The notes beneath the pieces are model-generated. The model was not told where the DNA came from. It searched no databases and worked only from the letters and a program-made list of their open reading frames with translations. Source: Candidatus Moraniibacteriota bacterium (lineage in GTDB: Bacteria; Patescibacteriota; Minisyncoccia; Moranbacterales; UBA1568). From it: a stretch of DNA of 64,000 nt. The DNA is taken from positions 605,670-669,669 of the forward strand of contig JBAQEZ010000003.1 in NCBI GenBank assembly GCA_049287005.1. The letters are read 5' to 3'. The translations under genes and the position numbers were made by a program. This document shows, piece after piece, positions 3,352 through 62,436 of the stretch. Numbering within the stretch: position 1 is the stretch's first letter; the number at the start of each line of letters is the position of its first letter.

Positions 3352-3559
3352 GATCACTCCTTTCGATGGGAAGATAGGGGGGAAAAATGGGGTATTCTGT
3401 TGTTTAAGTACAATCATACTACAATGGCATAAAAACCGTATTTTTGCAAGAATACAGAAGCGAACTTCTCTGATACAATATCGATATCTAGAAGCACATA
3501 CTTTTAATTGTTTTGTTTGATTCGTCATTCCTCGCTGATTAAAGTGACACGCTATCTAT

Positions 3560-6502: not shown

Positions 6503-7197
6503 ATCTCTTCTTTATCAGCGAATACCACGAGCCGCTGGGAATAGCTTTTGGCATCTTTATTCCAGACTCCTTCACAGGTAATGAGGTTCAGGTGCGACTG
6601 CTCATCATCTGAGCTGAACACGTCTGCAGCATCCGCATTCGGGTCATACTCACGACTTTCGCGCACCACAAAAAGAGTTATCGCCCCTTTTTCATCTTCG
6701 ACAGATATACTGTCTCCTTTTTTCAATTTATTCAAATCATCAAATACCGACCCTTCCCCATTTTTCCAGCGACCGGAATGTCCATCGATCACCGCGCTGC
6801 CGATATCTCCCGGATGTGGTCCGAGGCTGTACCAACCTACATTGCGGCTACCCTTCGGCGCCTCCATCGCTCCATCGGCAGTAAGGCTCATAGAGTCTAT
6901 CGCCGCATCAACATTGACCCTTGGAATCTTGAGCCGCGCCGGCAATGGAGAATGTACATTTTCCTGTTCATCAAGAGCAACGGCATTTTCAATGAGCGGC
7001 ACTGGACGGTTCTCTGCGCTGCTTTGTACGTTGACATGAAAAATGATCAACACGAGAAAAAGCAGGAGTCCTGAAAAAAAGACTGGCAGTAAAGCGCGGC
7101 TTGATAAACTTTTCCATTGCATAGATTTTCCACAAGGCTCATAACGTAAAGGCCCCGCCCAAGACGGAGCCTTCTTTCCTGCCTCTCGATCAAACAC
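6499..7197 (-). CDS. sortase-family transpeptidase
   Basis: One TM segment, the catalytic His in IDGH and the catalytic Cys in LITCEG. It overlaps the downstream substrate gene by 4 nt. MQWKSL at 7122 is an alternative start. Confidence 0.8.
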   Translation of the reverse strand: MFDREAGKKAPSWAGPLRYEPCGKSMQWKSLSSRALLPVFFSGLLLFLVLIIFHVNVQSSAENRPVPLIENAVALDEQENVHSPLPARLKIPRVNVDAAIDSMSLTADGAMEAPKGSRNVGWYSLGPHPGDIGSAVIDGHSGRWKNGEGSVFDDLNKLKKGDSISVEDEKGAITLFVVRESREYDPNADAADVFSSDDEQSHLNLITCEGVWNKDAKSYSQRLVVFADKEEI

Positions 7198-7225: not shown

Positions 7226-8119
7226 TTACATCGCGCGTTTTTTGAGAACTGCAGCGAGTGTAGTAATCGAAGTCAACATGAGGATACCGGCCAGCGCGAT
7301 GATATTCCATGAAACATTTTTCTCTTCAGGAGCAATGCCAGCATTCGGCAACTTGGGAACAGATTTGTGTTTACGGCTCCCGTTGCCGTTATCGCCACCA
7401 CCGCGGTTATCATTATCGCCAGAAGCGGCTACAGTGGCAGATGCACACGTCGGTTCGGTGATTTGGTTATTATCCATGGTTACCTGCGTGTGCGCCCAGG
7501 CTCGCCCTTTCAAAGGTACTCCTGACACAAATGTAATGTTACCTGTATTCGTGATAATCGTTCCTTCGATATTCCCAATAGCACCGAACGTCATCGAGGT
7601 GGGAATCTGCCAATAAACGTTGCAGGCCGTTGCGCCGTTGGTCAAAGACATCGTGCCACCGGTGGTTTGCGCGATACTCGACGTACTTCGGAAAATATAC
7701 ACGCCCGCGCCGCTGAGCGTGAGGGTAGAGTTGAATGCGGTCGCTGCTACATTGTAGACACCTGGCCCGACGGAAGGAGACGCAGCCAAACTGATAGCTC
7801 CAGTTTGCGTCTCTCCAGCCAGATCACCGTACGCTGAAGAGATAGCATTCACAACGGTGGTTTGGGTGACGTTGTATAACGTACCACTCACCTGTGAAGC
7901 GATGAGGTTCGCGACACCAAAAGCATTGCCACCGACATCTCCCCAGAGGTGGGACGTCTGGCCGGCAGTTTCCGTCACCCCCGCTACACCAAAGACCGAG
8001 TAGCCGGTAGCGACTCCCAGGTTCGGCGCTGTTGCCGCCTGAGTAGCGGTTGGTCCAGTCAGACCCAGCGTGATCATAACAGCCAATACGGCTATTAAAT
8101 TTTTATTAGGCATTTTCAT
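7226..8119 (-). CDS. secreted DUF3494/ice-binding-like repeat protein with an LPNAG sorting signal
   Basis: Signal peptide and a Gly/Thr/Asn-rich beta-solenoid-like sequence, ending in LPNAG plus a hydrophobic stretch plus KKR. Confidence 0.6.
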   Translation of the reverse strand: MKMPNKNLIAVLAVMITLGLTGPTATQAATAPNLGVATGYSVFGVAGVTETAGQTSHLWGDVGGNAFGVANLIASQVSGTLYNVTQTTVVNAISSAYGDLAGETQTGAISLAASPSVGPGVYNVAATAFNSTLTLSGAGVYIFRSTSSIAQTTGGTMSLTNGATACNVYWQIPTSMTFGAIGNIEGTIITNTGNITFVSGVPLKGRAWAHTQVTMDNNQITEPTCASATVAASGDNDNRGGGDNGNGSRKHKSVPKLPNAGIAPEEKNVSWNIIALAGILMLTSITTLAAVLKKRAM

Positions 8120-18458: not shown

Positions 18459-19118
18459 ATGGAAAGGCTAACAAAGAAGCAGACAGAGGTGCTCCAGTTT
18501 GTGCAAGATTTTCAAAAGAATCACTTGCACTCACCTTCGCTAAAGGAAATTGCCCATTTTTTTGAAGTAAGCATTCCGACCATTTACCAGCATGTTTCAG
18601 CCCTTGAAAAAAAAGGCTATCTTCTTCGTACAAAAAACAAAAGACGTGATTTTGAAATTGCAGAAACGCCGATCCCTAAGAATGCAATAAAATCCCCTGC
18701 TTTTGAGGCATTCACGGTTCCAATTCTTGGAGCTGCTACTGCTGGTTTTCCAAGAAACTTTGCCGAGGGACATGTAGAAGGATACATCAAAGTTTCTCGT
18801 AGGTTATTAAAACCAAAAAAAGAGCTGTTCGCAGTGAGGATAGATGGCGAATCTATGAACAAGGCCTCTAAGGCAGATGTCCTTCTTGCAAATGGAAACT
18901 TTGCAATTATTGATCCGACAAAAACGAATCCCGAAAACAATACCTATGTGTTATCAGTTATTGACGGTCTAGCAAATATTAAGAAGTTTCAAAGAGATAA
19001 AAATGGGATTCGTCTCATATCAGAATCTACAGAAGGTATTTATAATAAACCTATTCACATATCTAGTAGCGACGAGTATATGGTCAATGGTGAGGTGGTA
19101 GCGGTAATTGAGAAATAA
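18459..19118 (+). CDS. LexA/CI-like repressor (HTH plus S24 peptidase)
   Basis: An N-terminal LexA-type HTH, then a C-terminal VRIDGESM...K S24 Ser-Lys dyad. Confidence 0.8.
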   Translation: MERLTKKQTEVLQFVQDFQKNHLHSPSLKEIAHFFEVSIPTIYQHVSALEKKGYLLRTKNKRRDFEIAETPIPKNAIKSPAFEAFTVPILGAATAGFPRNFAEGHVEGYIKVSRRLLKPKKELFAVRIDGESMNKASKADVLLANGNFAIIDPTKTNPENNTYVLSVIDGLANIKKFQRDKNGIRLISESTEGIYNKPIHISSSDEYMVNGEVVAVIEK

Positions 19119-19125
19119 TTAGGTT

Positions 19126-19902
19126 ATGTCACTAAAATCAAAGAAAGGTCAGAAAAATAGAGACCACGTCAATCTGCTTATTTCTGATCAAAAATTTCAA
19201 GAAGAAATCAGAAAAATAAGGGTAAAGCTTGGTATACCTTCCGAAGGGTTTACTAAAAACGCTGAAATCGAAGCTTGGACTTATAAAGCTGCAGATGAAG
19301 CTGACGAAATTTTTGATTCAGAAGATTTTTGTGAAAATCTTCTGAAGATAGATAAAGATTTTCAAGATCAGAAAATAACCTCTCGCGAGAAGGATAACCT
19401 AAGATATGAGGCACATCTTGTTTTGCCAACAAATTACGAAGCTCATGCTATAAGAGAGATAATTAAAAATTTCAATCTGCCGGAAAACTACGAATTCATG
19501 TTACGGACTTATCTGGTAAACAACAGCACTAACTTTCTTCCTAATAATTTTTCCATATCGTACTCAAAAGATCAAAGGAGTGTTTCTGTAAATATTTACA
19601 CTCGTCTAACCGATGAGGATTTAAGAGAGATTAAAGAATTTGTAAACACTTACCATGGAGATAAGCTCCCCTATATACAGAGCCTAAACAACTTAAGCGA
19701 AAAACTCTCTATAGAAGAATTAGATCGGAAAGCATACGAGGTAGATGCTGTTACCTACAAACCTTATAGACTCACAAATAAAGACATTGCGGAAAGAGTT
19801 CTAGGAGATCCTTCTAGAGGGAATGAGGTTTACGAAGCTAAAAGAGGACTGGAAAGACTGAGAAAGTCACGATTTACCACACGGAAAACTATTGACCAAT
19901 AG
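19126..19902 (+). CDS. hypothetical protein
   Basis: A 258-aa ORF with no family motif that I recognise. Confidence 0.45.
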   Translation: MSLKSKKGQKNRDHVNLLISDQKFQEEIRKIRVKLGIPSEGFTKNAEIEAWTYKAADEADEIFDSEDFCENLLKIDKDFQDQKITSREKDNLRYEAHLVLPTNYEAHAIREIIKNFNLPENYEFMLRTYLVNNSTNFLPNNFSISYSKDQRSVSVNIYTRLTDEDLREIKEFVNTYHGDKLPYIQSLNNLSEKLSIEELDRKAYEVDAVTYKPYRLTNKDIAERVLGDPSRGNEVYEAKRGLERLRKSRFTTRKTIDQ

Positions 19903-19966
19903 TTTTCCGATTATTGACAGTGCTGAGCTTTATACTAAGAACATAATTAATTTTATGTTTTTTAGT

Positions 19967-21250
19967 ATGAAAAAGCTCTCATGGACGACGATCCAAAAAC
20001 GTGTTGATGATCTCATCCCCCAGGAGATCAACCCTCGCAGAATCACTGACAAGCAAATGTCGGATCTCAAGCGAAGTTTGAAAAAATTTAATTTAGTAGA
20101 ATTGCCTGCGTCAGACAGCGACGGAACAATTCTCGCCGGACACCAGCGCATCAAAGCCCTGCAGTTGCTCGGCCGTGGAAAAGAATTGATCGACATCCGG
20201 GTACCGAATCGGAAATTGACCAATCAAGAAGTAAAGGAATACTTGATCGGCTCCAATAAGTTGGGTGGTGATTGGGATTATGATCTCTTGAAAGCCTTTG
20301 ACTTTGAAACTCTTTCCTTTGCGGGTTTCGACGCTATCGAAATCGCAAACTTCTGGGATGAGAAGAATGAGACGAAGGAGGACGCTTTCAATGTCACGGA
20401 AGAGCTCAAAAAAATCAAAGACCCGAAGACAAAACTCGGTGACATTATTCATCTCGGCAAACACAAGATTCTCTGTGGAGATGCGACTGATCCGAAAAAT
20501 CTTGCCCGTCTCTTTGGAGACGAACGAGCTAGCATGATCTACTCGGATCCTGTCTACAATATTTCTATCGATTACGACGGTGGCATTGGCGGAAACAAAG
20601 AATACGGAGGAAACGTGAACGATACTCGTACCTACGAGGAATACCAGCAATTCATAAAGGAGAGCCTTATAGCTGCTCTTTCCGTTTCCCAGTCCGATAC
20701 TCATGTCTTTTACTACTGTGATCAAGTTTACATCGGCCTGATCCAAGACATCTATCGATCGCTTGGCGTTGCGAACAAGCGTGTTTGTTTGTGGCTCAAA
20801 AACTCTCAAAATCCGGTTCCGAAAGTGTATTGTAACAAAGCCTATGAGCCGGCCGTATACGGCACCCGAGGGAAGCCTTATCTTGCCGAATCCATCACTA
20901 ATCTCAACGAGGTGATGAATCGTGAGTTTACTACGGGCAACGACCTGGTATCTCAGGTAGATGATTTTCTCGAAATCTGGACCGCTAAGCGTCTTTCCGC
21001 CAAAGAGTACCAACACGCTACCTCAAAGCCGATCACACTACACGAGAAGGCCATAAAACGCTGTACAAGACCAAACGATATCATTCTGGATAGCTTCCTC
21101 GGCTCTAGTAGCACTCTTCTCGCTGGAGAACAGTTAGGGCGCCGAGTGTACGGATGTGAGCTTGAGCCCCGGTTTTGCGATCTCGGCGCCAACAGGTACG
21201 AGGCTCTCACGGGAATTAAACCGATTATCGAACACTATGAAAAAGAATAA
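19967..21250 (+). CDS. ParB-like nuclease domain fused to an N4/N6 DNA methyltransferase
   Basis: A GHQRIKA ParB-N motif, the SDPVYN (DPPY-type) catalytic motif, and an FLGSSST SAM-binding loop. Confidence 0.8.
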   Translation: MKKLSWTTIQKRVDDLIPQEINPRRITDKQMSDLKRSLKKFNLVELPASDSDGTILAGHQRIKALQLLGRGKELIDIRVPNRKLTNQEVKEYLIGSNKLGGDWDYDLLKAFDFETLSFAGFDAIEIANFWDEKNETKEDAFNVTEELKKIKDPKTKLGDIIHLGKHKILCGDATDPKNLARLFGDERASMIYSDPVYNISIDYDGGIGGNKEYGGNVNDTRTYEEYQQFIKESLIAALSVSQSDTHVFYYCDQVYIGLIQDIYRSLGVANKRVCLWLKNSQNPVPKVYCNKAYEPAVYGTRGKPYLAESITNLNEVMNREFTTGNDLVSQVDDFLEIWTAKRLSAKEYQHATSKPITLHEKAIKRCTRPNDIILDSFLGSSSTLLAGEQLGRRVYGCELEPRFCDLGANRYEALTGIKPIIEHYEKE

Positions 21251-21635
21251 GTACCAAAATCAATTTTTGGAGGAACTGGCACACATTCCCATTATCCAAG
21301 TGGCTTGCGAGAAAACTGGGCTTTCCCGCAATAGCGTGTACCGATGGCGCAAAAAAGATTCCGTCTTTGCCAAAAAAATGGATGAGGCCCTTGCCGATGG
21401 CGTCGCTCTCGTAAACGACATGAGCGAAAGCCAGCTCCTCAATCTGATCAAAGAAAAGAGTTGGCCTGCGATTAGTTTTTGGTTGAGACATAGGAATGAT
21501 AACTACAAAGCAAAGGTACAAATTGATGGTTCCCTAAAGACCATTAGTGAGCTTTCTCCAGATCAAGAAAAGACAGTAAAAGAAGCTCTCAAATTAGCAG
21601 GATTAATTAAAGAAGACTATGAAGAAACTCAATAA
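21237..21635 (+). CDS. terminase small subunit (HTH)
   Basis: Lies immediately upstream of, and overlapping, TerL. It reads IIQVACEKTGLSRNSVYRWRKKD. Confidence 0.5.
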   Translation: MKKNKYQNQFLEELAHIPIIQVACEKTGLSRNSVYRWRKKDSVFAKKMDEALADGVALVNDMSESQLLNLIKEKSWPAISFWLRHRNDNYKAKVQIDGSLKTISELSPDQEKTVKEALKLAGLIKEDYEETQ

Positions 21636-23058
21636 AGAATTACTTGATAGCCTTGTGAAAGATCGTTCCGTTAGGCAAAAAGTAGTGTACGAAAGCCACA
21701 TGATGTTTTTTCTTGTTTACTTCGCACACTACGTTAAATATGAGTTAGCGAACTTTCATGAAGAAATCATTAATATCACGCAAGACAGTAAAAACAAACT
21801 GGCATGTATTGTTGCGTTTCGAGGTTCTGGCAAATCTACTCTGGTGACTACATCATACTCTTTATGGGCTATTCTCGGTCGGCAAGGTAAAAAATTTGTT
21901 CTCATCGTCTGTCAGACGCAAGCACAGGCAAAACAACATATGAGAAATTTACGATCCGAATTAGAAGAAAATAGACTCTTAAAAAGTGACTTGGGACCAT
22001 TCAAAGAAGAACCTGATCTTGAATGGGCTATTTCTTCATTAGTGTTCAGTAATACCGGAGCAAGAATCACCATTGCTTCCTTGGATCAGAGTATCCGCGG
22101 TATGCGACATCGTGAGTATCGTCCCGATCTCATTATTCTCGATGACGTTGAAGATGTGCAATCAGTAAAAACGGTAGAGTCGAGAGATAAAACGTTTGAT
22201 TGGTTTACAAGAGAAATCATCCCTCTCGGAGACCTCAATACGAGAACCATTGTTGTCGGAAATTTGCTACACGAAGATTCTCTTGTTATGAGATTGAGAG
22301 ACAAGATTGAAAATAAAGATATAGAAGGGGTCTATAGACAGTACCCACTTGTAAACCAAGATGGTATCTGTCTCTGGCCTGGAAAGTTTCCTAACAACGA
22401 AAGTCTGGAGTTATTTAGAAAATCAATTGTAAGCGAAACTAGCTGGCAAAGAGAGTATTTACTTCTTGTAGTGCCTGACGATTATCAGATAATTCATAGG
22501 GACTGGATACAACGTTATGATGAATTACCTAAAAATACCAGGTCATACTATGAAGTCATCATTGCCGTTGATCCGGCAATCACTCAAACAGAAAGATCTG
22601 ACTACACTGGGATAGTGTGCGGATTAGTGGTGTTTGAAAAATCAGATTATTATAAACTATATATCTTGCCTAATCCAATAAACGAAAAAATGGACTTTCC
22701 TACACTGGTAGACAGAATTAAGGCATTAGCGGAGGAGATTAAAAGAGATATCTATTATTCAATAGCAATCGTTGTAGAATCCGTGGGCTATCAAGAGGCA
22801 ATCCCTCAACAATTAAGACGAGAGGGTTTCGACAACTGTGAAGCGGTTAAACCAACGTCGGATAAAAGATCAAGACTGGCAGTAGTCAGTCATAGAATAA
22901 AAAATGGAGACATTTTATTTCCTAAGCAAGGAGCAGAAAACCTCATAAATCAAATTGTAAATTTAGGTAATGAAAAACACGACGATCTTGCTGATGCGTT
23001 TGTTATGTGCGCACAAAAGCATTCATCTTATACTGTACAGTATATAGGGTTTGCCTGA
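21619..23058 (+). CDS. terminase large subunit
   Basis: A Walker A motif AFRGSGKST, a Walker B motif LIILDDVED, and a C-terminal RNaseH-like nuclease region (AVDPAITQTERSDYTGIV). Confidence 0.8.
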   Translation: MKKLNKELLDSLVKDRSVRQKVVYESHMMFFLVYFAHYVKYELANFHEEIINITQDSKNKLACIVAFRGSGKSTLVTTSYSLWAILGRQGKKFVLIVCQTQAQAKQHMRNLRSELEENRLLKSDLGPFKEEPDLEWAISSLVFSNTGARITIASLDQSIRGMRHREYRPDLIILDDVEDVQSVKTVESRDKTFDWFTREIIPLGDLNTRTIVVGNLLHEDSLVMRLRDKIENKDIEGVYRQYPLVNQDGICLWPGKFPNNESLELFRKSIVSETSWQREYLLLVVPDDYQIIHRDWIQRYDELPKNTRSYYEVIIAVDPAITQTERSDYTGIVCGLVVFEKSDYYKLYILPNPINEKMDFPTLVDRIKALAEEIKRDIYYSIAIVVESVGYQEAIPQQLRREGFDNCEAVKPTSDKRSRLAVVSHRIKNGDILFPKQGAENLINQIVNLGNEKHDDLADAFVMCAQKHSSYTVQYIGFA

Positions 23059-23254: not shown

Positions 23255-24610
23255 ATGGATAATAGCTATATTTCAGCCCTCATTGGTCAACCAGCAGTAA
23301 TTCCGACAGTAAAGGTTAGGTACTGCCTCTATGCCAGAAAGTCTACCGAACAGGACGAAAAACAAGCCCTTTCCATTGAGTCGCAAGTGAAAGAAATGCT
23401 CGCTATCGCCGAAAGAGAAAATCTCGACATCATAGACATACGAAGAGAGGCGCATTCAGCTAAAGCTTCTGGACAACGGCCAGTCTTCAAGGAAATACTC
23501 GCCGATGTGCGAAGAGAACGGTTCAATGGAATCCTTGTTTGGCATCCTGATAGATTGAGCAGAAATGCGGGAGATCTTGGTTCGGTTGTAGATCTTATGG
23601 ATGAGCAATTGCTAGTGCAAATACGGACGTACGGACAGGCATTTACGAATACACCGAGCGAGAAGTTTCTCCTTATGATTCTATGCAGTCAGGCAAAACT
23701 CGAGAATGACAACAAGAGTATTAACGTAAAACGTGGACTCAGGACAAGGGTCGAGATGGGGTTATGGCCCGCCCCTGCCCCAACTGGCTACTTCAAAGAA
23801 AAGAGAATGGATCGCAAATGCGAAACGCTTATTGATCCAGATCGAGCACCAATCATAAAGCAAATGTTTGAAAAAGTGGCTTATGAAAAATGGAGTGGTC
23901 GGAAAGTTTATAATTGGCTGAAATTTGATCTCAATTTCAAAACAGCGGGTGGGAATAAGAATCTGACATTGAGTAACGTCTATATATTATTGCAAAATCA
24001 CTTCTATTATGGGACTTTCGAGTACCCGAAAAAGTCGGGAAACTGGTATCAGGGTAGACATGAACCGATTATTAGCAAAGAACTATTTGACCAAGTCCAA
24101 GCACAGGTAAAGAGCCATATACTGAGAACGCAAGAACCAAAAGAATTTGCCTTTACCAAACTGATGACTTGTGGACTTTGCGGATCTGGGATATCTGCTG
24201 ACGAAAAGTTTAAAAAGCTAAAAGATGGTTCAGCGAATAGACATGTCTATTACGGTTGTAGCAAATCCAAAGACAGAAATTGCAAACGAATTTATATTAA
24301 TGAATCAGATTTGATTAAACAACTTGAAATGCTTCTTGATAAAATAAGCATTGACGAAATTGGAATAGTAGAAAAAATAAAGTATGAAGTCGAAAGAATG
24401 AAGAAATTTCAACAATCTATTCTAAATATAAAACAAGAGGTACAAATAAAAGACGTAGACATCAGAGACTACGTTAAATTCATTTTGAAAGACGGATCAA
24501 TTGAAGAAAAGCGAGAATTACTAACTTGTCTCAAAAGTCGACTCATCCTTACAAAAGAGAAGAAATTAATTCTCAGGAAATATGAAACCACCATAGAAAA
24601 CAATATTTGA
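23255..24610 (+). CDS. large serine recombinase (phage-type integrase/resolvase family)
   Basis: A catalytic domain YARKSTEQ...VWHPDRLSRN, a recombinase domain, and a zinc ribbon CGLCGSG...YYGCSK. Confidence 0.85.
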   Translation: MDNSYISALIGQPAVIPTVKVRYCLYARKSTEQDEKQALSIESQVKEMLAIAERENLDIIDIRREAHSAKASGQRPVFKEILADVRRERFNGILVWHPDRLSRNAGDLGSVVDLMDEQLLVQIRTYGQAFTNTPSEKFLLMILCSQAKLENDNKSINVKRGLRTRVEMGLWPAPAPTGYFKEKRMDRKCETLIDPDRAPIIKQMFEKVAYEKWSGRKVYNWLKFDLNFKTAGGNKNLTLSNVYILLQNHFYYGTFEYPKKSGNWYQGRHEPIISKELFDQVQAQVKSHILRTQEPKEFAFTKLMTCGLCGSGISADEKFKKLKDGSANRHVYYGCSKSKDRNCKRIYINESDLIKQLEMLLDKISIDEIGIVEKIKYEVERMKKFQQSILNIKQEVQIKDVDIRDYVKFILKDGSIEEKRELLTCLKSRLILTKEKKLILRKYETTIENNI

Positions 24611-26883: not shown

Positions 26884-27975
26884 TTATTTTCTTTCCATAT
26901 TTACAAATTGATCAAAGTATTCAATATCCTCCACTGAAATTGATGGGTTAAATTTATTGATTGCTTCAACTAGCATTTTCTCATCAACCATATTTTTATT
27001 TTGAGACACGGCAGCGCGAGCTGCCTCTGTGACAATCAGTTCAATATCTGATCCCACATAATTCTCTGACATTTTTGCAAGTTTTTCAAAATCAATGTCA
27101 TTATCATATGGTCGACCAGAGAGACAAATTTTAAACATATCTCTCCTTGCTTTAAAATCAGGCGGTCCAATATAAATTCGCTTGTCCATTCTACCTGATC
27201 GGAGTATGGCTGTATCAATCATATGTGGCCTATTTGTTGCTCCAACAACTAAAATCTTATTCTGACCAGCATTATTAAGTTGAAGCAAGAACTCATTTAT
27301 TTCTTCTTTTTTAATATCAGCCGAGGCGCTTAACTCTTCTCTTTTTGGTACAAGCCCTTCGATTTCGTCAATAAACACAATTGATGGTGCTTGCAGCTTT
27401 GCCATTTCAAAAACTTTACCAATATTACCTACCGCGCCGTGAACATAGGAGGTTGCAACAGAAGAAGGGGCCATCTCGATAAAGTTATACCCGAGTTCCT
27501 CTGCTAATTTTTTAACAATAAATGTTTTGCCGCATCCCGGAGGTCCAAAAAGTAATATACCATTCGGGATGCCGAGCTTGAATTTTATATACTTCTCCGG
27601 ATTCAACAATGGCTCTATCACCTCATTGATCAAAAGGTTTTTCAGAGATTCCATACCAGCGACACAATCAAAGCCACGCAAGACAGTAAGATCATCTATG
27701 ACGTCACCGATCTTTTCATTTGCGTGTTCATCTGTAATAACACAAAGGTGTTTTTTTCCTCCATGATTAATTGTAATCAAATCGTATTTTTTTGCGCGGT
27801 CAACAACTTCCTCTGGTTGTATATTAGTAAAAAGATAAAGATATTTTCCATTAGAAAGTACATACACTTCCGTAAAAAAGACTCGTTCAATGCGGCTCGT
27901 AACTGTGATGTCATCTCTTATTTTGAAGCCATTATGCAAAATTGGCTTTGTAGGTGTCGCCATATTTTTATTCAC
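26884..27975 (-). CDS. AAA+ ATPase (classic AAA clade with a single AAA domain)
   Basis: A Walker A motif GPPGCGKT, a Walker B motif IVFIDEIEG, and a second region of homology with an arginine finger (GATNRPHMIDTAILRSGRMD). Confidence 0.85.
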   Translation of the reverse strand: MNKNMATPTKPILHNGFKIRDDITVTSRIERVFFTEVYVLSNGKYLYLFTNIQPEEVVDRAKKYDLITINHGGKKHLCVITDEHANEKIGDVIDDLTVLRGFDCVAGMESLKNLLINEVIEPLLNPEKYIKFKLGIPNGILLFGPPGCGKTFIVKKLAEELGYNFIEMAPSSVATSYVHGAVGNIGKVFEMAKLQAPSIVFIDEIEGLVPKREELSASADIKKEEINEFLLQLNNAGQNKILVVGATNRPHMIDTAILRSGRMDKRIYIGPPDFKARRDMFKICLSGRPYDNDIDFEKLAKMSENYVGSDIELIVTEAARAAVSQNKNMVDEKMLVEAINKFNPSISVEDIEYFDQFVNMERK

Positions 27976-30866: not shown

Positions 30867-33380
30867 TTATCGTGTAATACCCGAAAGTTTATTTCTCATT
30901 GTTTCCTGTTCATCAGATGGCAGTAGCAACAATAAGTTGTGAACGCAGCGCTTTAACTCGTCAACATCACCAAGCTCTATTGCGCGTCTGCCTTTCTCGG
31001 TATAATAACCAGCTTCCTTTTCATTGATAAATTTCTTATTACCATCGGTAAGTTGACTGAATTGATAGGCCCATGTTGCCGGATTAGAAAACAAAGCCTT
31101 GCCACCAAGTTCCTTGATTTGCTCGTTTACTCGGACCAGGAGAGCTTTATCATTTTCTGCTATAGCCTTTTCTCCTTCTTCTTTCATTTTTTTGAGATGC
31201 TCCTCGTGCTGTACTTTGTCTTTATCATCACCAAGTTCAGTGATAATTGTTTGGGTAGTTTCTGTGCTCTCTTTAAATTCTTTAAGCAACTGGGGCATCT
31301 CTTTTTCCTTTTCAAGTCGATCAATAGCTATTTTTAAATCCTTAAGTTGTTTGTTTGCCTTAAGCTTCTCGTCTTCGTCAATATGCGCGTTCCTCAAGCT
31401 GTTTGCTACCGAATTGATCGTGTTATTAAGTCTATTCTTTTCCTCAGTAGAACAGTTTTCAGAAACAGACCGTGCTCTTTCAGTTTGTATATTTAAATCA
31501 TATTCAATAGTCTTAACTTCTAGAGTTTCATCTTGCGCTGTAGAACGAGCCTTGAGGGTGAGGTCAACCAAAGGAATATAAGCGGTCACAAAGACTTCGC
31601 GCGACTCATTCATTTCGACAGTCAATTCCAATGGAGTTCCTTCTGGTAGATCATGAGGTAAATCCTTGCCATTAACGCCTAGCTCACAAAGATAGGTGTT
31701 GCGATCAGGGATCTCGGACTCGCCCTCAACCAAGGTAATATCCAATTTGCCTTCTTCATTTTTCCTTAGTTTTCTGGAAGTTTTTAAATCAGTTAGGACT
31801 TTCTTAATAGGAAGTATAGATCCCTTGTCGAAAATCTTCTCACAAACGTTTGTTGCAATATTCCGAATATGATCCTTTTTAGCTACAATTACACCAACCG
31901 AATGAGGCAATGGTGCACCGGATACTGATAGCCCCTGGGTAATAGAAAATGAGTCAGGATCAACCAAAACAGAATTGCCGTCTTTGTCAAAAAGGTAAAT
32001 CCAATAGACGTTTGGCTTGCCTGGTTCGACAGCAACCGTATCAAAAAATTTGCCACTCTTTAACTTGATTTTTGAACCATTATAAAATCCGCTGTCTGAT
32101 TGAATTTGTATATAATATTCTTCTTCGGAATCTTTAATATCCTCTATGACACCACTGATTGTTTCTTCGGTATCGGAAGTCAGAGATTCATAATTCAGAT
32201 TGATAGACATTGTCCCTTTTTTGAGTTTCTGAGGGTCATTTTCTATGAGTTCCTTCGGAATCTTTTGTCCAATTCCAAATACACAAGCACCTCTTGCAAC
32301 GACTGTGAGAGGGTCAACAGACGCATCTGCGATTATTTTAAGTTCGCTTTCTATTCTTTCACGAATGTATGGGATTTGAGTTGGTCCGCCAACGAGAATT
32401 ACCTTTGCAACAGAACTATTCTTAATACCAGCATCTTTCAATGTCTCCTTCGAAAGCTCAATGGTGCGATCAACCATTGGTTTGATTAGTTTTTCAAATT
32501 CTTTCCTCGTAAAATCAATGGTAAGAAAAACCTCTTTGCATTCATTGTCATTCCCGATGTTCTCTACTACGATTGATGTTTTTTCGTATTCGGAAAGTTC
32601 AATTTTAGCCCTCTCAGCAAAGAATTTCAATTGGGAAAAAATACCGCGGTATTTTTCATTGCCTCTATTGAAATTATTAATTGAAAATTTCTCTAAAATC
32701 TTTGGCACTATTACTTTGTCAACAATCTCCAAATCAAAGTTCTTACCACCAAGAAAATTGTCACCGTTATGACCAAGCACTGAAAGTGCTCTATCTTTGG
32801 AAGCTATCAAAGCTACGTCAAATGTGCCTCCACCAAAATCATAAATGAGCCAATTTTCATTCTTGGTGTTTGTGAAACCATAAGCAATAGCAGCGGCTAT
32901 CGGCTCTTGTAATAGTATTACGTGTTTAAATCCGGCAAGATTTCCAGCACGCTTTGTTGCTTCAGACTGTAAAACCGAAAAAGCAGCTGGAACCGTGATT
33001 ACGGCAGCTACGGTATTGAAGTCTGTATATTTTCTTAAAATGTCCTCTTTTAGACTTTTAAGGATCTCAGCCGAAATTTCTTCCGGCCCCATTTCTATAC
33101 CAGCTCTCTCAAAATAAAAAGTTTCCGAAGTGCCCATCAGCCTTTTAACTTCGGGTTTGTAGTTTTTTATCTCATCTTCAGATGCGTCCTTATAAAAATT
33201 CTCATAAGCCTTCTGACCAACCACTTTATTCTTTGATTTATCAAAACCAAACACAGACGGCGTATATTCAACACCGCCAGGTTTTTTGACGATTTCAATA
33301 TTGCCGTTATTGTTTATAGCAATAGATGAGTTTGTTGTACCCAGATCTATGCCTATTTGAATACTTTGTTGACTGGCCAT
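30867..33380 (-). CDS. atypical Hsp70-family ATPase (DnaK-like NBD plus a roughly 460-aa non-canonical C-terminal region)
   Basis: Carries [25 protein letters not shown] and ILVGGPTQIPYI. The C-terminus lacks a DnaK-type substrate-binding domain. Confidence 0.8.
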   Translation of the reverse strand: MASQQSIQIGIDLGTTNSSIAINNNGNIEIVKKPGGVEYTPSVFGFDKSKNKVVGQKAYENFYKDASEDEIKNYKPEVKRLMGTSETFYFERAGIEMGPEEISAEILKSLKEDILRKYTDFNTVAAVITVPAAFSVLQSEATKRAGNLAGFKHVILLQEPIAAAIAYGFTNTKNENWLIYDFGGGTFDVALIASKDRALSVLGHNGDNFLGGKNFDLEIVDKVIVPKILEKFSINNFNRGNEKYRGIFSQLKFFAERAKIELSEYEKTSIVVENIGNDNECKEVFLTIDFTRKEFEKLIKPMVDRTIELSKETLKDAGIKNSSVAKVILVGGPTQIPYIRERIESELKIIADASVDPLTVVARGACVFGIGQKIPKELIENDPQKLKKGTMSINLNYESLTSDTEETISGVIEDIKDSEEEYYIQIQSDSGFYNGSKIKLKSGKFFDTVAVEPGKPNVYWIYLFDKDGNSVLVDPDSFSITQGLSVSGAPLPHSVGVIVAKKDHIRNIATNVCEKIFDKGSILPIKKVLTDLKTSRKLRKNEEGKLDITLVEGESEIPDRNTYLCELGVNGKDLPHDLPEGTPLELTVEMNESREVFVTAYIPLVDLTLKARSTAQDETLEVKTIEYDLNIQTERARSVSENCSTEEKNRLNNTINSVANSLRNAHIDEDEKLKANKQLKDLKIAIDRLEKEKEMPQLLKEFKESTETTQTIITELGDDKDKVQHEEHLKKMKEEGEKAIAENDKALLVRVNEQIKELGGKALFSNPATWAYQFSQLTDGNKKFINEKEAGYYTEKGRRAIELGDVDELKRCVHNLLLLLPSDEQETMRNKLSGITR

Positions 33381-47391: not shown

Positions 47392-49323
47392 TTATTTTTT
47401 CTCTTCTTCTGCTGGCTTGTCACCTTCCGGCTTTGCAGGTTCTGTTTCGGCTTCCTTAGGAGCCTCGGCAGTACCTTCGCCTTCGGGCTTGGCTTCGCCC
47501 TGCTTGGCCTTTTCGGCCTCTTGGGCGGCAGTATAGAGCTTCTGGCCGATGGCTTGGGCGGCGGTGGAGAGCGTCTCGGTCGCCTTCTTGATGGCTTCCA
47601 GATCATCACCGTTCTTCACCTTGTTCAGTTCCGTGATGGCTTCCTCGACCGGCTTCTTCTCATCGGCGGTCAACTTGTCACCCGCGTCTTTCAGAGCTTT
47701 CTCAGTCGTGTAGGAGAGCGAGTCTGCCATATTGCGTGCTTCGATGAGTTCCTTCTTGCGTTTGTCTTCATCGGCATGCATCTCGGCATCCTTGGTCATC
47801 CGTTCGATCTCATCCTTGGAAAGTCCGGTGGATGATTCGATGCGGATAGACTGGGATTTGTTGGTGGCCTTGTCCTTGGCCGTCACTGAGAGGATACCCG
47901 AGGCATCGATGTCGAAGGTCACTTCCACCTGCGGGACACCACGTGGTGCCGGCGGGATACCATCGAGGATGAATTGTCCGAGAGACTTGTTGTCACTGGC
48001 CATCTCACGCTCGCCCTGGAGCACGTGGATCTGTACCGATGGCTGGTTGTCAGCCGCGGTCGAGAAGACTTGTGAACGAGAGACCGGAACAGTCGTGTTG
48101 CGATCGATGAGTGGGGTACGTACGCCTCCCAAAGTTTCAATACCGAATGTCAGCGGAGTCACATCGAGGAGGAGCACATCTTTCACCGATCCCTCGAGTA
48201 CGCCTCCCTGGATAGCGGCACCGAGCGCCACGACTTCGTCAGGGTTGACCGAGATATTCGGTTTCTTGCCGAAGAATGCTTCTACCTTGGCAAGGACGAG
48301 CGGCATACGGGTCATCCCACCGACCAACACCACTTCGCTCAAATCCTTCACATCGAGATGGGCATCGGCCAAGGCTTTCTTGACCGGTTCGAAAGTGGCT
48401 TCAACGAGATCACCGACCAATTCTTCCAATTTGGCACGGCTCATCTTGATCAGCATGTGCTTCGGTCCGCTGGCATCAGCGGTGATGAACGGTTGATTGA
48501 TTTCTGTTTCATTGGCAGTTGAGAGTTCGATCTTGGCCTTCTCGGCAGATTCCTTGATGCGCTGGAGAGCCAGAGGATCTTTGGAAAGGTCCATGCCTTC
48601 CTGCTTCTTGAATTCGTCGAGGATCCAGTGGATGATGCGCTGGTCGAAGTCATCGCCACCCAAGTGGGTGTCACCGTTGGTCGACTTCACTTCGACGGTA
48701 TCTTCGGCCACTTCCAAAATAGAGATATCGAAGGTACCGCCGCCGAGATCATAGACCGCGATTTTCTCGTCTTTCTTTTTGTTGAAACCATAGGCCAGAG
48801 CTGCGGCCGTCGGCTCATTGATGATGCGACGGACATTGAACCCGGCGATTTCACCAGCCTCTTTGGTCGCTTTGCGCTGGGAGTCATCGAAGTATGCCGG
48901 CACAGTGATGACCGCGTCAGTGATCTTCTCGCCGAGTTTCTCTTCCGCATCGGCCTTCAGTTTCTGCAGCACCATCGCGGAGAGTTCCTGCGGAGAGTAT
49001 TCCTTGCCGCCCATCACGATCTTCACACCTTCACCGGCTTGGATGATCTTGTACGGAAGGGTTTTCATATCCCGCTTCACTTCATCATCGTTGAAATGCC
49101 GTCCGATGAGACGTTTCACGGAAAACAGCGTGTTCTCCGGGTTGGTCACGCCCTGGCGCTTGGCCAGAAGCCCCACCAGACGCTCGCCGGTCTTCGATAC
49201 GGCCACCATGGATGGGGTCGTCCGATTGCCTTCCTTGTTTTCGATTATGTTGGGGGTTCCGCCTTCCACGAATGCCATCGCGGAATTGGTCGTCCCCAAA
49301 TCGATACCGAGTATTTTACTCAT
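47392..49323 (-). CDS. dnaK: molecular chaperone DnaK (canonical Hsp70)
   Basis: [25 protein letters not shown] and a canonical substrate-binding domain [15 protein letters not shown]. Confidence 0.95.
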
Positions 49324-49450: not shown

Positions 49451-50029
49451 TCATTTCACGATCACTTTCGCCGGACGGATCACTCTGTCCCCGAATTTGT
49501 AGCCCTTCTGCACGACTCTGGCAATAACATGTTCTTCTGGCTTGTCTTCTTTTTCTTCGACTTCTTCCCCCTCATTTTCCATTTTGATATTTCCATTTTG
49601 CATTTCTAATGCCTCATGGATGCTCGGATCGAATGTTTCCCCTTCCTTCGCTTCTATCGTCTGCATGCCGTTATCAGTCAAAACCGTTTCCAGCTGCTTT
49701 TCGATGTACTGGATGCCGACCACCCACGGACTGTCTTTCTGTTCTTCCGGTACATGCATCGTGGCGGAACAGAAGTTGTCGAGGACGGGAATGATATCGA
49801 GTACCAATCTCTCTATCAGGATTCCCCGCAAATCTTTCTGTGATTCTTGCTGACGCTTCTTGTAATTCTCAAAGTCCGCTCGTGCCCGTTTCAGATCCGT
49901 GAGATATTCCATCGCTTTCGTTTCCCAATCTCCGGCCGAAGCATCATCCGACGCCGGAGATTCGCCCGGCCCGGTCTCTTCTGGAGATTCCATAATTTCT
50001 TCCTCCTGATTCTTTTTCTTTTGTGTCAT
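49451..50029 (-). CDS. grpE: nucleotide exchange factor GrpE
   Basis: Sits in the hrcA-grpE-dnaK order and carries the C-terminal VVQKGYKFGDRVIRPAKV. Confidence 0.85.
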   Translation of the reverse strand: MTQKKKNQEEEIMESPEETGPGESPASDDASAGDWETKAMEYLTDLKRARADFENYKKRQQESQKDLRGILIERLVLDIIPVLDNFCSATMHVPEEQKDSPWVVGIQYIEKQLETVLTDNGMQTIEAKEGETFDPSIHEALEMQNGNIKMENEGEEVEEKEDKPEEHVIARVVQKGYKFGDRVIRPAKVIVK

Positions 50030-50033
50030 ATGC

Positions 50034-50795
50034 TTATTGCATCAGATAAATTACGTTGCCGGTGAAAACAATAACGAGCGATGAACTGAGCAGCTTCTTC
50101 ATATACTCGATGAGGGATTTGTTCTTGGCATATTCCATCCGTTTCGGTCCGATGATAGCAAGCATGCCGCGTTCGCCAGCTTTGTTCTGATACGGCGCGA
50201 TGATCATCGAACAATTGTCGATGCCCGAGATGGGATTCTCATCTCCGATGAAAATCTGTGTCTCTCCGTCTTTCAGTTTGAGCATGATACCATCCAGTTT
50301 CTCGTCCAACGAATCCAAGGTTTCTACCAAACGGCACAATTCATCCATTTCCTTGAACTCCGGCTTTTCGATCATCTCTTTCATCCCGAAATCGTATACT
50401 TCGTCTTTGCCGACAATGCCCGAGACCGCGAGATTCCCGGAAAGAGCGGAGAGGAGTTTGGCAGTCGTGCGACCGAGGCGGACGTGCTTGGCTTTCAGTA
50501 TGAGCAATTCTTTTTGCAAATGTTCCTGGTCTTTGCGCGAAAGGGTTTCTTCTCCCATCATCTCCTCGACGTACGTGCGGTAGCCTTTGTCGGTCGGGAT
50601 GCGTCCGGCGCTCACATGTGGCTGATAGAGATAGCCCTCTTCTTCGAGGGTGGCCATATCGCTACGGAGCGTCGCCGAACTGACCGGAAAATCAAATCGC
50701 TCCAGCAATGCCAACGACCCTATCGGTGATGCTGTTTCCGTATAGAGTTCGATGACCGCTGAGAGGACTTGCTGTTGGCGCTTGTTCATAAGCAA
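50034..50795 (-). CDS. hrcA: heat-inducible transcription repressor HrcA
   Basis: A winged-HTH N-terminus, in the operon position upstream of grpE. Confidence 0.8.
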   Translation of the reverse strand: MLMNKRQQQVLSAVIELYTETASPIGSLALLERFDFPVSSATLRSDMATLEEEGYLYQPHVSAGRIPTDKGYRTYVEEMMGEETLSRKDQEHLQKELLILKAKHVRLGRTTAKLLSALSGNLAVSGIVGKDEVYDFGMKEMIEKPEFKEMDELCRLVETLDSLDEKLDGIMLKLKDGETQIFIGDENPISGIDNCSMIIAPYQNKAGERGMLAIIGPKRMEYAKNKSLIEYMKKLLSSSLVIVFTGNVIYLMQ

Positions 50796-50879
50796 CTTAT
50801 TAGCTTGTAGCTTTTTTGCTTCGTTGGCTTAAAAAAATACTCAAACATTTACTCGCAATTTCATTATAAATACACGCTG

Positions 50880-50903
50880 GCACTCTGTCAAGTAGAGTGC
50901 TAA
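50880..50903. promoter_or_regulatory. CIRCE operator (GCACTC-N9-GAGTGCTAA) upstream of hrcA
   Basis: Matches the TTAGCACTC-N9-GAGTGCTAA consensus in the 3' half and 6 of 9 bases in the 5' half. Confidence 0.7.
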
Positions 50904-57167: not shown

Positions 57168-57196
57168 TTGACAAATTCCCTATTCAGGTGTATAAT
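57168..57196 (+). promoter_or_regulatory. consensus sigma70 promoter (TTGACA-17-TATAAT)
   Basis: An exact -35/-10 pair with 17-nt spacing, reading toward the LuxI-like gene. Confidence 0.6.
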
Positions 57197-57317
57197 ATTC
57201 CGTTAGATCATTAACAACGAGCAGCCCTGTTTTTTCCTTATTTTTGCTCCCGGTGAGCCGCCATATTTTCGCATCCCCTTACCCGGGGAAGGCATGCGGC
57301 TTATCGTGGAGCAAATC

Positions 57318-57962
57318 ATGAAAAACAATCTGGGAGTAGTAAGAAGCATCACCCCCGCAGCGGCACCACTACCGTATGAACCGACGATTATCTTCGCTGG
57401 CACCAAGAACAAGCGGCAAAAGGAGCTTGTCAAGGATCATTACCGGCGGCGTCATGATGTTTTCGCCGTCCAATACGGCTGGGAAGACATCCGTGCCGAC
57501 GGGATGGAACAAGACGGCTACGACCGCTTCGGTCATTGCGACTACGTCCTCCTGGTGCGTGCCGATGGAAGAGTAGGCGCTGGCTGCCGTCTCATTTGGA
57601 GCACGCCGGCCTCACCGCTCCCGATCCAGGAGTTTCTCGAGGATCCCAGCAGCGTGCCGACTGGTTCCGTGGAAATTTCACGGATGACCGCCACGCCCGA
57701 AACGGCCAGGTCTTCCAGCCGCTTCCTCGGATATCTCCTCGGTTACCTGGCGGAACGCGAAGTATCGGGCTTCTACGTCACCATCCGGAAGCGTCTGCTC
57801 GAGAAGTACGCTCATAGCGGATTCAATCGCTACGAGCTGCTCCCTGGACAAGCGATGGAAAAGACCAGCCGGGACGGAACGAGAGAGTCCTTCCTTCCGG
57901 TCCGTATCGGTCTGGAGGGAGAACAACAAGCTATCAGCCTCCTCTCGAGGCTGTGCCGATGA
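57318..57962 (+). CDS. LuxI-family autoinducer-synthase-like GNAT (N-acyl amino acid/homoserine-lactone synthase family)
   Basis: HDVFAVQYGWEDI, EQDGYDRFGH, GCRLIWSTP and EISRM correspond to the conserved LuxI blocks R..VF...W, E.D.YD, RL.PT and E.SRF. Confidence 0.6.
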   Translation: MKNNLGVVRSITPAAAPLPYEPTIIFAGTKNKRQKELVKDHYRRRHDVFAVQYGWEDIRADGMEQDGYDRFGHCDYVLLVRADGRVGAGCRLIWSTPASPLPIQEFLEDPSSVPTGSVEISRMTATPETARSSSRFLGYLLGYLAEREVSGFYVTIRKRLLEKYAHSGFNRYELLPGQAMEKTSRDGTRESFLPVRIGLEGEQQAISLLSRLCR

Positions 57963-58025
57963 AAAACAACGAGCCCCACTAGTGTAACAACACAGTGGGG
58001 CTCAAAAATTTTCCAGAATAAAAAT

Positions 58026-60525: not shown

Positions 60526-62436
60526 TTATGGACCGTCTTCACTCGGCTCAACCACAAGAGTCACCCGCTTCTGAGAATTGGGGATACTCTCCGCGAACCA
60601 CTGGGGATGAAAAATGACTTGAATATTTTTTACCTCCGGAAAACTCTCCAGTACTTGCTTGATGCCGTCTTCATTTTTCCCCAGAAGCATCACCTGTAAT
60701 TTCTCCTTATCGATATCCGATTCCATGGTGACAAGAGCGTGCGCTCTGACTCGGAGCGTGCCCGAAGCGAAGTCCGCCGAAGAGTCGCCATAGGTGATAC
60801 TCGAAAAAACCGGCCGGAAGCGCATTCCCTGAAAATTTTTCTCACTGGCGCCTGCTACTTTCTCTTTGACTACTTTTTCTGAAAAAGCAAACGCGCGCAC
60901 CCTGAACGTCCCCCGGTAATCAAACGCGCTCGCTACTGTACCGATCGATGGCAAATCAGGAGCAACCAGCGGGACGATATCCAGCTCCTCATCCAGTATT
61001 TTCTCATCTGATGCCAAGGCGTCACGGATCCCACTCAAAAAATCTCCTTTCGCTTTTTCTGTCGCCTCGCGGAGCGCCGCATCCACATCAACCTTCGTCA
61101 CGACAGCGACATCAGATACGCCTCCACTCCCTCCGCCCGTCATGGCTTTCGTGGATTTGGCGGAAAACTTGTCATATTTCGCCCCCCCCTTGAAACCAGG
61201 GATAGTAAACGTCGTCGCCTCGATATTGTATTCTGCTCCTGCCTGATCAGCGATGACAGTTGCCTCTCTGGCTCCCGACTCATTGCCAGCCATCGCCGGA
61301 ACAGTCACGCCGCCCTGCAGTCGGAAAATTTTTCCATCAGCGGTTTCCAGCCGAGTGGTCGCCACCAAAGACTGCGGTTCGGTATTATAATTGTTATACA
61401 GGATGACTGTTCCGTGGGCTTTCTGATTTGCTCCTCCGGATTTGCCAGTCGTCGCGACAGTCACGGCCACTTCTATGTCTTTTTCAAGCATGCGCACAGG
61501 AAAAACATCTTCCTCAGACAATACGCTGTCAGCTGTGCCATTGAATTCCGTATCAATGGTTTGGACGATTCGGTACGGCGTCACATGCACTTCTGCCTTC
61601 GGAAGCACGAAGAAGAGCACCACTGCCACGAGAGATAGCAGCGAAATACCCCCCAAGATAAAAAATATCATGTGCGCCTTCTTGCCAACGGTCGCTTGAG
61701 GCGCAGACGCTGACACCCTTTGCGTTGTGACAGCTGGCGCAGCCGGTATGGTTCCGTTGTAAAAGTTTTTTAACCGTTCGCCGTTATCTTGCCGCGGCAT
61801 CTGCTGAGACACCGGAACAGATGGCTGAGGAGAAGCGGGCGAGGCATATCCGGAGAGAGGCGGCACATCCGCCAGACGCGGCCGTATCGACATCGTTTGT
61901 GACGGAGCGTTCTGCTCGAAGCGTTTGGAATTGAGACTCGTCAAGGTTTCTGGGGAAGCGTTACGCACGCGTAGCGAGGTGCCGGCTTGCGGCGCAATCG
62001 TCAGCGGAGGCACACTGCCCGCGCCAGCTGGCGCGGCCTCCTGCGCGTAAAAATCAACACTGCCGATAGCATTGGAATGCGGCATATGCTCTTCTACCGA
62101 AACAAGTGCTTTCGGCAACGATTGAGGCATGGCAGCCACCTTTTGAGAAGTCAACTCGAGATGAGCAGCTTTCTGGGAAAAATCTTCTGAATAGTTTTCT
62201 GTCTCAATCCCCGCTTTTGCGGCCAACATTCTGCCGACTTCATCCTGACTGACAACGGTGATCTTCTTGCCCAATTTCTCCGCTTCGCGCTGGAAAAGTC
62301 GCAGGTTGATGATGCTCTGCAACACCAGGGCGCGCTTCGGAAAAACAAAGATATTCTCTTCCGCGGAAGATTTGCGTAAACGGCCGATAACCGAGATAAT
62401 CTCTTCGTCGGATTCGATATAGAAGGTCTGTGACAT
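60526..62436 (-). CDS. bitopic membrane protein with an N-terminal cytoplasmic domain, a Pro-rich linker and a C-terminal extracytoplasmic domain (FtsA-associated)
   Basis: It follows ftsA with a 40-nt gap, and a TM helix sits near residue 250. Confidence 0.5.
   Translation of the reverse strand: MSQTFYIESDEEIISVIGRLRKSSAEENIFVFPKRALVLQSIINLRLFQREAEKLGKKITVVSQDEVGRMLAAKAGIETENYSEDFSQKAAHLELTSQKVAAMPQSLPKALVSVEEHMPHSNAIGSVDFYAQEAAPAGAGSVPPLTIAPQAGTSLRVRNASPETLTSLNSKRFEQNAPSQTMSIRPRLADVPPLSGYASPASPQPSVPVSQQMPRQDNGERLKNFYNGTIPAAPAVTTQRVSASAPQATVGKKAHMIFFILGGISLLSLVAVVLFFVLPKAEVHVTPYRIVQTIDTEFNGTADSVLSEEDVFPVRMLEKDIEVAVTVATTGKSGGANQKAHGTVILYNNYNTEPQSLVATTRLETADGKIFRLQGGVTVPAMAGNESGAREATVIADQAGAEYNIEATTFTIPGFKGGAKYDKFSAKSTKAMTGGGSGGVSDVAVVTKVDVDAALREATEKAKGDFLSGIRDALASDEKILDEELDIVPLVAPDLPSIGTVASAFDYRGTFRVRAFAFSEKVVKEKVAGASEKNFQGMRFRPVFSSITYGDSSADFASGTLRVRAHALVTMESDIDKEKLQVMLLGKNEDGIKQVLESFPEVKNIQVIFHPQWFAESIPNSQKRVTLVVEPSEDGP

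Follow-up and report, generated by a model that had tools for sequence, protein, structure and literature searches.

A gene for a divergent member of the LuxI/autoinducer-synthase superfamily stands, in the genome of a Candidatus Moraniibacteriota bacterium, behind a consensus sigma-70 promoter and a structured leader RNA that is more strongly conserved than the coding sequence (CDS) it precedes and is predicted to pair the Shine-Dalgarno (SD) sequence of that gene. We describe this locus from a stretch of 64,000 nucleotides of contig JBAQEZ010000003.1 (assembly GCA_049287005.1), referred to below as the window. We consider it fairly probable that the locus encodes a LuxI-type enzyme, most likely one making an N-acyl-homoserine lactone (AHL), whose translation is gated by the SD-sequestering leader. 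A preliminary description of the window had pointed out the gene and its promoter and missed the transcribed leader (about 115 nt in all, as predicted from promoter to start codon), which, of all parts of the locus, is conserved best and understood least. The elements on which the argument turns are the following.

57168-57196, + strand: sigma-70-type promoter, with -35 TTGACA (57168-57173), a 17-nt spacer and -10 TATAAT (57191-57196)
57246-57312, + strand: conserved structured leader RNA of about 70 nt (RNAalifold consensus, covariance model)
Helix P1: GCUCC 57246-57250 with GGAGC 57308-57312 (consensus GCUCC/GGAGY); the SD sequence GGAG is 57308-57311
Helix P2: UGAGCC 57254-57259 with GGCUUA 57298-57303 (consensus UGRGCC/GGCUYA), next to an A/U-rich internal loop
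Helix P3: CGCAU 57270-57274 with AUGCG 57294-57298
Helix P4: CCCC 57275-57278 with GGGG 57285-57288, with apical loop UUACCC and 3' bulge AAGGC
57318-57962, + strand: CDS of 214 amino acids, a divergent member of the LuxI/autoinducer-synthase superfamily

Leader RNA and promoter

Across 14 distinct homologous loci the leader is more conserved than the CDS, and in a fifteenth (L021) it has diverged and shows the same fold. The core of the leader (57246-57317) shares 75-93% nucleotide identity with the other loci, compared with 56-70% for the CDS, and at locus L020 the leader is 80% and the protein 33% identical. The gene itself is real and begins where the preliminary description had placed it. 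Called mechanically, the open reading frame (ORF) that ends at 57962 on the + strand begins at ATG 57294, but conservation places its start at ATG 57318, with GGAG (57308-57311) 6 nt upstream; the NCBI protein (P0001, from a contig of 766,823 bp) has the same 214-residue form under the name 'MAG: acyl-homoserine-lactone synthase [Candidatus Moraniibacteriota bacterium]'. We rejected a start at ATG 57294, and likewise an upstream peptide, on three grounds: the codon reads ATA or GTA in four homologous loci, the ATG covaries as part of the 3' arm of P3, and the frame is disrupted by a 1-nt indel. Since the ATG is not conserved and the indel breaks the frame, a coding explanation for the conservation of the leader is excluded.

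An RNAalifold consensus from 12 distinct sequences gave a nested hairpin of four helices, P1 to P4. The leader of the window has a minimum free energy of -45.6 kcal/mol (z = -4.97), and none of 200 shuffles was as stable. In the alignment fitted to the model, 95.6% of cells pair, compared with 31-51% when the partners were slid, and the covariation score exceeded that of 499 of 500 shuffles. Helix P3, counted over 14 sequences, is paired in 68 of 70 cells and carries double changes at three of its five positions (C-G to U-A once, C-G to U-A four times, and A-U to G-C twice). Variation in P2 consists only of exchanges among G-C, G.U and A-U, which keep the pairing on the sense strand and leave A.C mismatches on the opposite strand. 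The SD sequence was predicted to be paired in all 15 leaders folded, with a probability of about 1 at every SD base in most of them and at most SD bases in the rest; the same folding gave predicted stabilities of -22 to -42 kcal/mol.

Two further readings of the leader were set aside. A DNA-level inverted-repeat operator is disfavored, as the arms are variably spaced and it is only on the sense strand that the substitutions are compatible with G.U pairing. We also considered a pseudoknot between an upstream CCCGG and the palindromic core CCCGGG; its apparent support at L021 (CCUG/CAGG) turned out, on folding, to be the P1 helix between anti-SD and SD.

The covariance model (R1) found exactly one copy of the leader per locus, at 74-102 bits and always before the luxI-like gene, and neither the remainder of the window nor about 160 kb of related loci yielded a second copy of the kind a regulon would have. 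Diverged leaders precede the distant homologues at L025 (36.6 bits, E = 7e-11) and at L023 (27.3 bits, E = 2e-7), where the outer helices differ in sequence and the apical CCC(C)-UU(UU)ACCC-GGGG-AAG persists. With the covariance model the L021 leader falls short of significance; folded on its own, it adopts P1(SD)-P2-P3-P4. A search of Rfam 15 (4227 families) with the leader of the window and those of six other loci returned no match, only noise at E ≥ 0.2, all of it below one third of the gathering scores. When IMG/VR was scanned for the 17-nt core, the six matches were all chance occurrences, with the full element absent. By the evidence of Rfam and the searchable literature, the leader is a previously undescribed RNA element, and the combination of an orphan LuxI-type gene in a housekeeping block of the candidate phyla radiation (CPR) with an SD-sequestering leader RNA is new as well. 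The protein alone is a modest finding, being annotated at NCBI already, and in-silico surveys have described LuxI homologues in CPR genomes before.

The promoter matches the consensus at 12 of 12 positions, which bears out the preliminary description, and its -35/-10 pair is kept before every homologue for which the upstream DNA reaches far enough. Perfect TTGACA-17-TATAAT arrangements occur twice in the 64-kb window and not at all in 100 shuffles. A divergent promoter matching at 11 of 12 positions (57141-57113) serves rplU, and a conserved box lies between the promoter of the luxI-like gene and its leader. The only other perfect arrangement in the window, at 50863-50891 on the - strand, is found upstream of the hrcA-grpE-dnaK operon.

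57202-57217, + strand: conserved box GTTAGATCATTAACAA, directly 3' of the -10 element; its TTAACAA is nearly invariant across loci
50034-50795, 49451-50029 and 47392-49323: hrcA-grpE-dnaK operon

In upstream alignments the box is retained at the distant locus L021 and absent at L023, and its GTT...AAC forms an inverted repeat of variable spacing. It could mark the predicted 5' end of the transcript, form a 5'-terminal hairpin or serve as an operator.

The LuxI-type protein

The protein is a member of the LuxI/autoinducer-synthase superfamily, on a divergent and rare branch. PF00765 (Autoind_synth) is the sole Pfam match of its 214 residues (28.7 bits, E = 1.2e-6, gathering cut-off 24). A sequence search of the PDB retrieved BjaI, RpaI, LasI, TofI, EsaI and MesI, with only the N-terminal 60-90 residues aligned; all matches below E = 0.01 were AHL synthases, as were seven of the nine up to E = 10. 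A tblastn search of 72,556 plasmids gave only 27 matches. The 15 listed all lay on replicons of Rhizobium or Sinorhizobium, where those with an annotated feature beneath, four in number, were TraI-type AHL synthases; the TraI-type plasmid matches are 31-36% identical over residues 23-136. Compared directly, Rhizobium TraI is 35% identical to the query over residues 30-133 (E = 2e-13; hhalign probability 93%).

The LuxI-family blocks named in the preliminary description (R..VF..W; E.D.YD; RL.P.; E.SR) are present and invariant in the family. Residues R45, F49, W55, E64, D66, Y68, D69, R91-L92, E119, S121 and R122 are identical throughout an alignment of 11 homologues, and the conserved residues are nearly invariant among 60 distant relatives. 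R45, F49, W55, E64, D66 and D69 align with R23, F27, W33, E42, D44 and D47 of LasI, while R91 and E119-x-S121-R122 correspond to LasI R70 and E101-x-S103-R104, at near-identical spacing; R45, F49, W55, D66, D69, R91, E119, S121 and R122 align to LasI, BjaI and TraI alike. We take LasI R23, F27, W33, D44, D47, R70, E101, S103 and R104 to be the catalytic and S-adenosylmethionine (SAM)-site residues.

A confident AlphaFold2 model built on the family alignment (mean predicted local distance difference test score 86.3, predicted template modeling score 0.82) appears to have the AHL-synthase fold over its full length, including the acyl-binding C-terminal half. In a Foldseek search of the PDB with this model the top ten matches were all AHL synthases (BjaI at E = 2e-8, TM score 0.65), and in two fold searches AHL synthases ranked first, above all generic GNATs. 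Identity in structural alignments was 17-22% with AHL synthases, compared with 10% with FeeM. The best structural and profile matches include the coenzyme A (CoA)-dependent synthases BjaI, RpaI and MesI, and LasI scores equally. Together, the sequence comparisons and the AlphaFold2/Foldseek results indicate that the full-length fold, as modeled, is LuxI-like and that the set of SAM-site residues is complete.

The family is small and isolated, with only 11 clusters at 90% identity among 5.8 billion proteins; of 1.84 billion representatives searched exhaustively with a profile, 198 matched at E ≤ 1e-3, only 24 of them at E ≤ 1e-10. The assignment to the superfamily made in the preliminary description stands on the Pfam, PDB and fold searches. 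The blocks on which it had been based do less: R..VF, E.D.YD, RL and E.SR are common to the whole clan of LuxI, Acetyltransf_5, FeeM and TIGR03694, and so by themselves are not proof of AHL synthesis. The lineage lies in poorly characterized territory, with true AHL synthases on one side and N-acyl-amino-acid or lipid N-acyltransferases on the other. AHL synthesis appears to be its most likely chemistry, at about an even chance, because AHL synthases are the only sequence matches of the query, which also retains the tryptophan of the G-W motif and the complete residue set.

Genomic context

All loci that extend far enough to include the neighbors have the gene order corA-cysS-dnaB-recR, rplU (- strand), the luxI-like gene (+ strand), alaS (- strand) and, further on, an ftsA-like gene. 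Loci that encode proteins no more than 33-70% identical still place the gene between rplU and alaS. The gene forms a monocistronic unit within this conserved block of housekeeping genes, with a strong hairpin in the gap between it and the convergent alaS.

57971-58003, strand unassigned: strong hairpin between the luxI-like gene (+ strand) and alaS (- strand)

This hairpin (-26.6 kcal/mol, z = -6.86) is flanked on both sides by A/U runs, was not listed by a scan for promoters and terminators, and is probably a bidirectional intrinsic terminator.

The guanine-plus-cytosine (GC) content of the luxI-like gene (0.58; 0.66 at third codon positions, GC3) matches that of the neighboring housekeeping genes. 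We rejected a recent horizontal transfer from proteobacteria because GC and GC3 resemble those of the neighbors and synteny is conserved; both indicate that the gene has long been vertically resident in the Moraniibacteriota lineage. The preliminary description had also remarked that no LuxR-type gene is adjacent, which holds over a wider range: neither a LuxR-type receptor (PF03472) nor a histidine or sensor kinase was found within about 10 kb on either side in the syntenic loci, and Pfam detected no LuxR-type gene among the 40 largest ORFs of the window.

A contig titled 'uncultured Bdellovibrionales bacterium' (CAYVHS010000008.1; L009 / L005) has the gene order, the luxI-like gene and the leader of the Moraniibacteriota loci, and its bin label is therefore probably wrong. 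A 636-residue protein without a Pfam match (60526-62436, - strand; also L001 13087-14997 and L005 13155-15065) is syntenic in all related loci, where its gene stands between alaS and the FtsA-like gene, adjoined by two small conserved ORFs of about 75-89 residues.

Other features of the window lie at a distance from the locus. A sortase gene (6499-7197, - strand) adjoins genes for a SpaA-type prealbumin-fold surface protein (4844-6502) and an ice-binding-like protein (7226-8119); the sortase and SpaA genes (4844-7197) are 50 kb from the luxI-like gene and unrelated to it and to its leader. A gene for a GGDEF diguanylate cyclase (2509-3528, - strand) indicates that cyclic di-GMP signaling is present in this small genome. 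The region from about 8000 to 35000 has a low GC content (36-42%, compared with about 50% in the flanking core genes), carries defense and mobile-element genes, and is probably an integrated element or genomic island. Its genes include the following.

16434-17861: Shedu SduA-like
18459-19118: LexA-like repressor
19892-21250: DNA methylase
21619-23058: terminase-like
23255-24610: serine recombinase
26884-27975: AAA ATPase
30867-33380: HSP70-like protein of 837 amino acids

Proposed mechanism, alternatives and known systems

In the mechanism that we propose, the consensus sigma-70 promoter would drive a transcript comprising the leader of about 115 nt and the CDS of 214 codons, ending at the hairpin held in common with alaS, and transcription would be strong and largely constitutive. 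P1 would occlude the ribosome-binding site by default: as the leader base pairs the SD sequence with the upstream GCUCC, translation would be closed unless the leader is opened. A factor that recognizes the nearly invariant apical part (CCCC-UUACCC-GGGG-AAG) probably opens the leader or holds it closed, and could be a small molecule, which would make the leader a riboswitch, or a protein. One route of opening would be the alternative local hairpin GCUC-CCGGU-GRGC, which would free the SD sequence. The enzyme would then move an acyl group from an acyl thioester, on CoA or a carrier protein, to the amino group of SAM, and the products would be an N-acyl-homoserine lactone and methylthioadenosine (MTA), as with LuxI enzymes; another amine might be acylated instead.

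The locus bears on how CPR bacteria (Patescibacteria), generally regarded as living attached to host cells, communicate with those hosts. A LuxI-type enzyme that has no LuxR, is inherited vertically and is kept among housekeeping genes suggests a chemical output in one direction only, and the ligand or partner of the leader would reveal the condition that triggers production of the compound. The leader offers a compact (about 70 nt) and very strongly conserved handle on this question, and its control of an autoinducer-synthase-type gene at the RNA level would be unusual. That the factor is a metabolite, and the leader hence a riboswitch, seems to us doubtful. We would rate as unlikely the fuller proposal, in which the leader is a new riboswitch class, restricted to a Moraniibacteriota lineage, that senses a metabolite (for example SAM, MTA, S-adenosylhomocysteine (SAH) or a host-derived compound) and gates the orphan synthase, so that a LuxR-less CPR episymbiont emits an acyl-HSL-like signal (HSL, homoserine lactone) to its host or community only in a defined metabolic state. 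If the riboswitch reading is true, this would be the first autoinducer synthase controlled by an RNA sensor, with its signal directed at the host or community.

Several observations weigh against an AHL synthase gated by its leader. On the enzyme side, the PF00765 alignment is limited to profile positions 3-66 of 183, in the N-terminal third of the protein; sequence similarity to bona fide AHL synthases ends after about residue 100-135, and the C-terminal, acyl-binding half resembles them at the level of the fold only. Scores against NCBIfam models are far below the cut-offs (30 bits against 250 for the equivalog NF052393; 35.6 against 292 for NF010408, TraI), and the nearest outgroups (P0013-P0023, about 25-33% identical to the query) are equally marginal on PF00765 and on PF13444/FeeM. 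No LuxR, sensor kinase, acyl carrier protein, Fab or MetK was found among the 40 largest window ORFs, scanned with Pfam, or within about 10 kb in the syntenic loci, and CPR bacteria usually lack fatty-acid synthesis, which leaves the acyl donor a puzzle. On the RNA side, the leader structures are thermodynamic predictions, and an unbiased count finds double changes in only two pairs, covariation being limited because most leader positions never vary. The apical part can be drawn in two ways (CCCC/GGGG or CCUU/AAGG).

The outgroup scores also lend weight to a serious rival, which we hold to be possible at a good deal less than even chances: the enzyme could be another N-acyltransferase of the clan, a FeeM/NasY-like N-acyl amino acid synthase or an OlsB-like lipid N-acyltransferase, that acylates a free amino acid or amine instead of SAM, the leader then gating a lipid or lipo-amino acid. 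P0013-P0023 match PF13444 and FeeM about as well as PF00765, and among 60 relatives PF00765 is matched by 40, PF13444 by 37, FeeM (PF21926) by 16 and TIGR03694, weakly, by 56; the N-terminal motifs are common across the clan, and no LuxR partner was found in the range given above. The query itself, however, matches neither PF13444 (Acetyltransf_5) nor FeeM even at E ≤ 10, though relatives at 20-33% identity match them weakly, and its significant PDB matches and listed annotated plasmid matches are all AHL synthases. The G-W motif tryptophan and the full R/F/W/D/D/R/E/S/R set are invariant at LuxI spacing, and the higher structural-alignment identity to AHL synthases than to FeeM (17-22% against 10%) points the same way. 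A tie to protein sorting, through a PEP-CTERM/exosortase-type or sortase-linked acyltransferase, had been offered in the preliminary description, and TIGR03694 is indeed nominally the best NCBIfam match (E = 3.7e-9), with a sortase and a SpaA-like pilin present in the window. That match reaches 36.4 bits against a cut-off of 111.95 and spans only the clan-wide N-terminal block; moreover, the sortase genes (4844-7197) are 50 kb away and the neighbors are rplU, recR, dnaB and alaS in every locus long enough to show them. By score and context this reading is effectively refuted already. Misassignment of a generic GNAT acetyltransferase to LuxI is very improbable too: the protein matches no Acetyltransf family of Pfam, carries the LuxI-type N-terminal extension and residues, and in both fold searches generic GNATs were outranked by AHL synthases.

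For the leader, an account that requires no metabolite has somewhat under an even chance. The RNA could be a protein-binding site, for CsrA-like or another translational repressor or for autoregulation by the enzyme, or else a constitutive hairpin that damps translation and stabilizes the mRNA, keeping a costly enzyme low despite the consensus promoter. The SD sequence is paired in all leaders whatever the details, the structure is very stable (-22 to -42 kcal/mol), both the conserved core and the SD sequence have motifs that contain GGA, and no known riboswitch class in Rfam matches, all of which suit this account. A purely structural role, however, needs no near-invariant apical sequence of 17 nt, kept even at about 30% protein identity, and for a protein site no candidate binding protein was found.

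Compared with LuxI-family AHL synthases (LasI 1RO5, TofI 3P2H and EsaI 1KZF; the CoA-dependent BjaI 5W8A, RpaI 6WN0 and MesI 6WNS; rhizobial TraI), the protein has a like set of N-terminal SAM-site residues at like spacing and a like size of about 200 residues, and TraI is 35% identical over the first 100 or so aligned residues. Unlike these enzymes, its C-terminal half has no detectable sequence similarity to them, and it falls far below the NCBIfam cut-offs for AHL synthases. The system differs from those of the LuxI family in having no LuxR partner nearby, a CPR host, a setting in a housekeeping block and a structured leader RNA instead of a lux box. FeeM (PF21926), Acetyltransf_5 (PF13444, OlsB-like) and TIGR03694 have the clan, the fold and blocks of the R..F / E.D.YD / RL / E.SR type in common with the query, yet it falls below every one of their thresholds and is less similar to them than to AHL synthases, and its relatives match them weakly.

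LuxI homologues in CPR genomes, with key residues conserved, were predicted in silico by Bernard et al. (2020, mSystems, PMC7567580); 18 of the homologues, half, are reported there to adjoin a sensory kinase. The Moraniibacteriota family differs from them in having no sensory kinase nearby, and the paper does not describe the leader RNA. No LuxI entry for Moranbacteria appeared in a non-exhaustive check of its supplements.

Control in the 5' untranslated region has precedents among proteobacterial AHL-synthase genes, in the RNA thermometer of lasI and the control of sinI by small RNA. The Moraniibacteriota leader differs from known riboswitches and leaders in matching no Rfam 15 family, and its structure is much more stable than that of typical RNA thermometers. 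Its likeness is to the translational riboswitches that sequester the SD sequence (SAM-II, SAM-III/SMK box and SAM/SAH): as in these, a conserved 5' leader pairs the SD sequence, a conserved apical, aptamer-like part is carried on more variable outer helices, and the element accompanies a single gene family.

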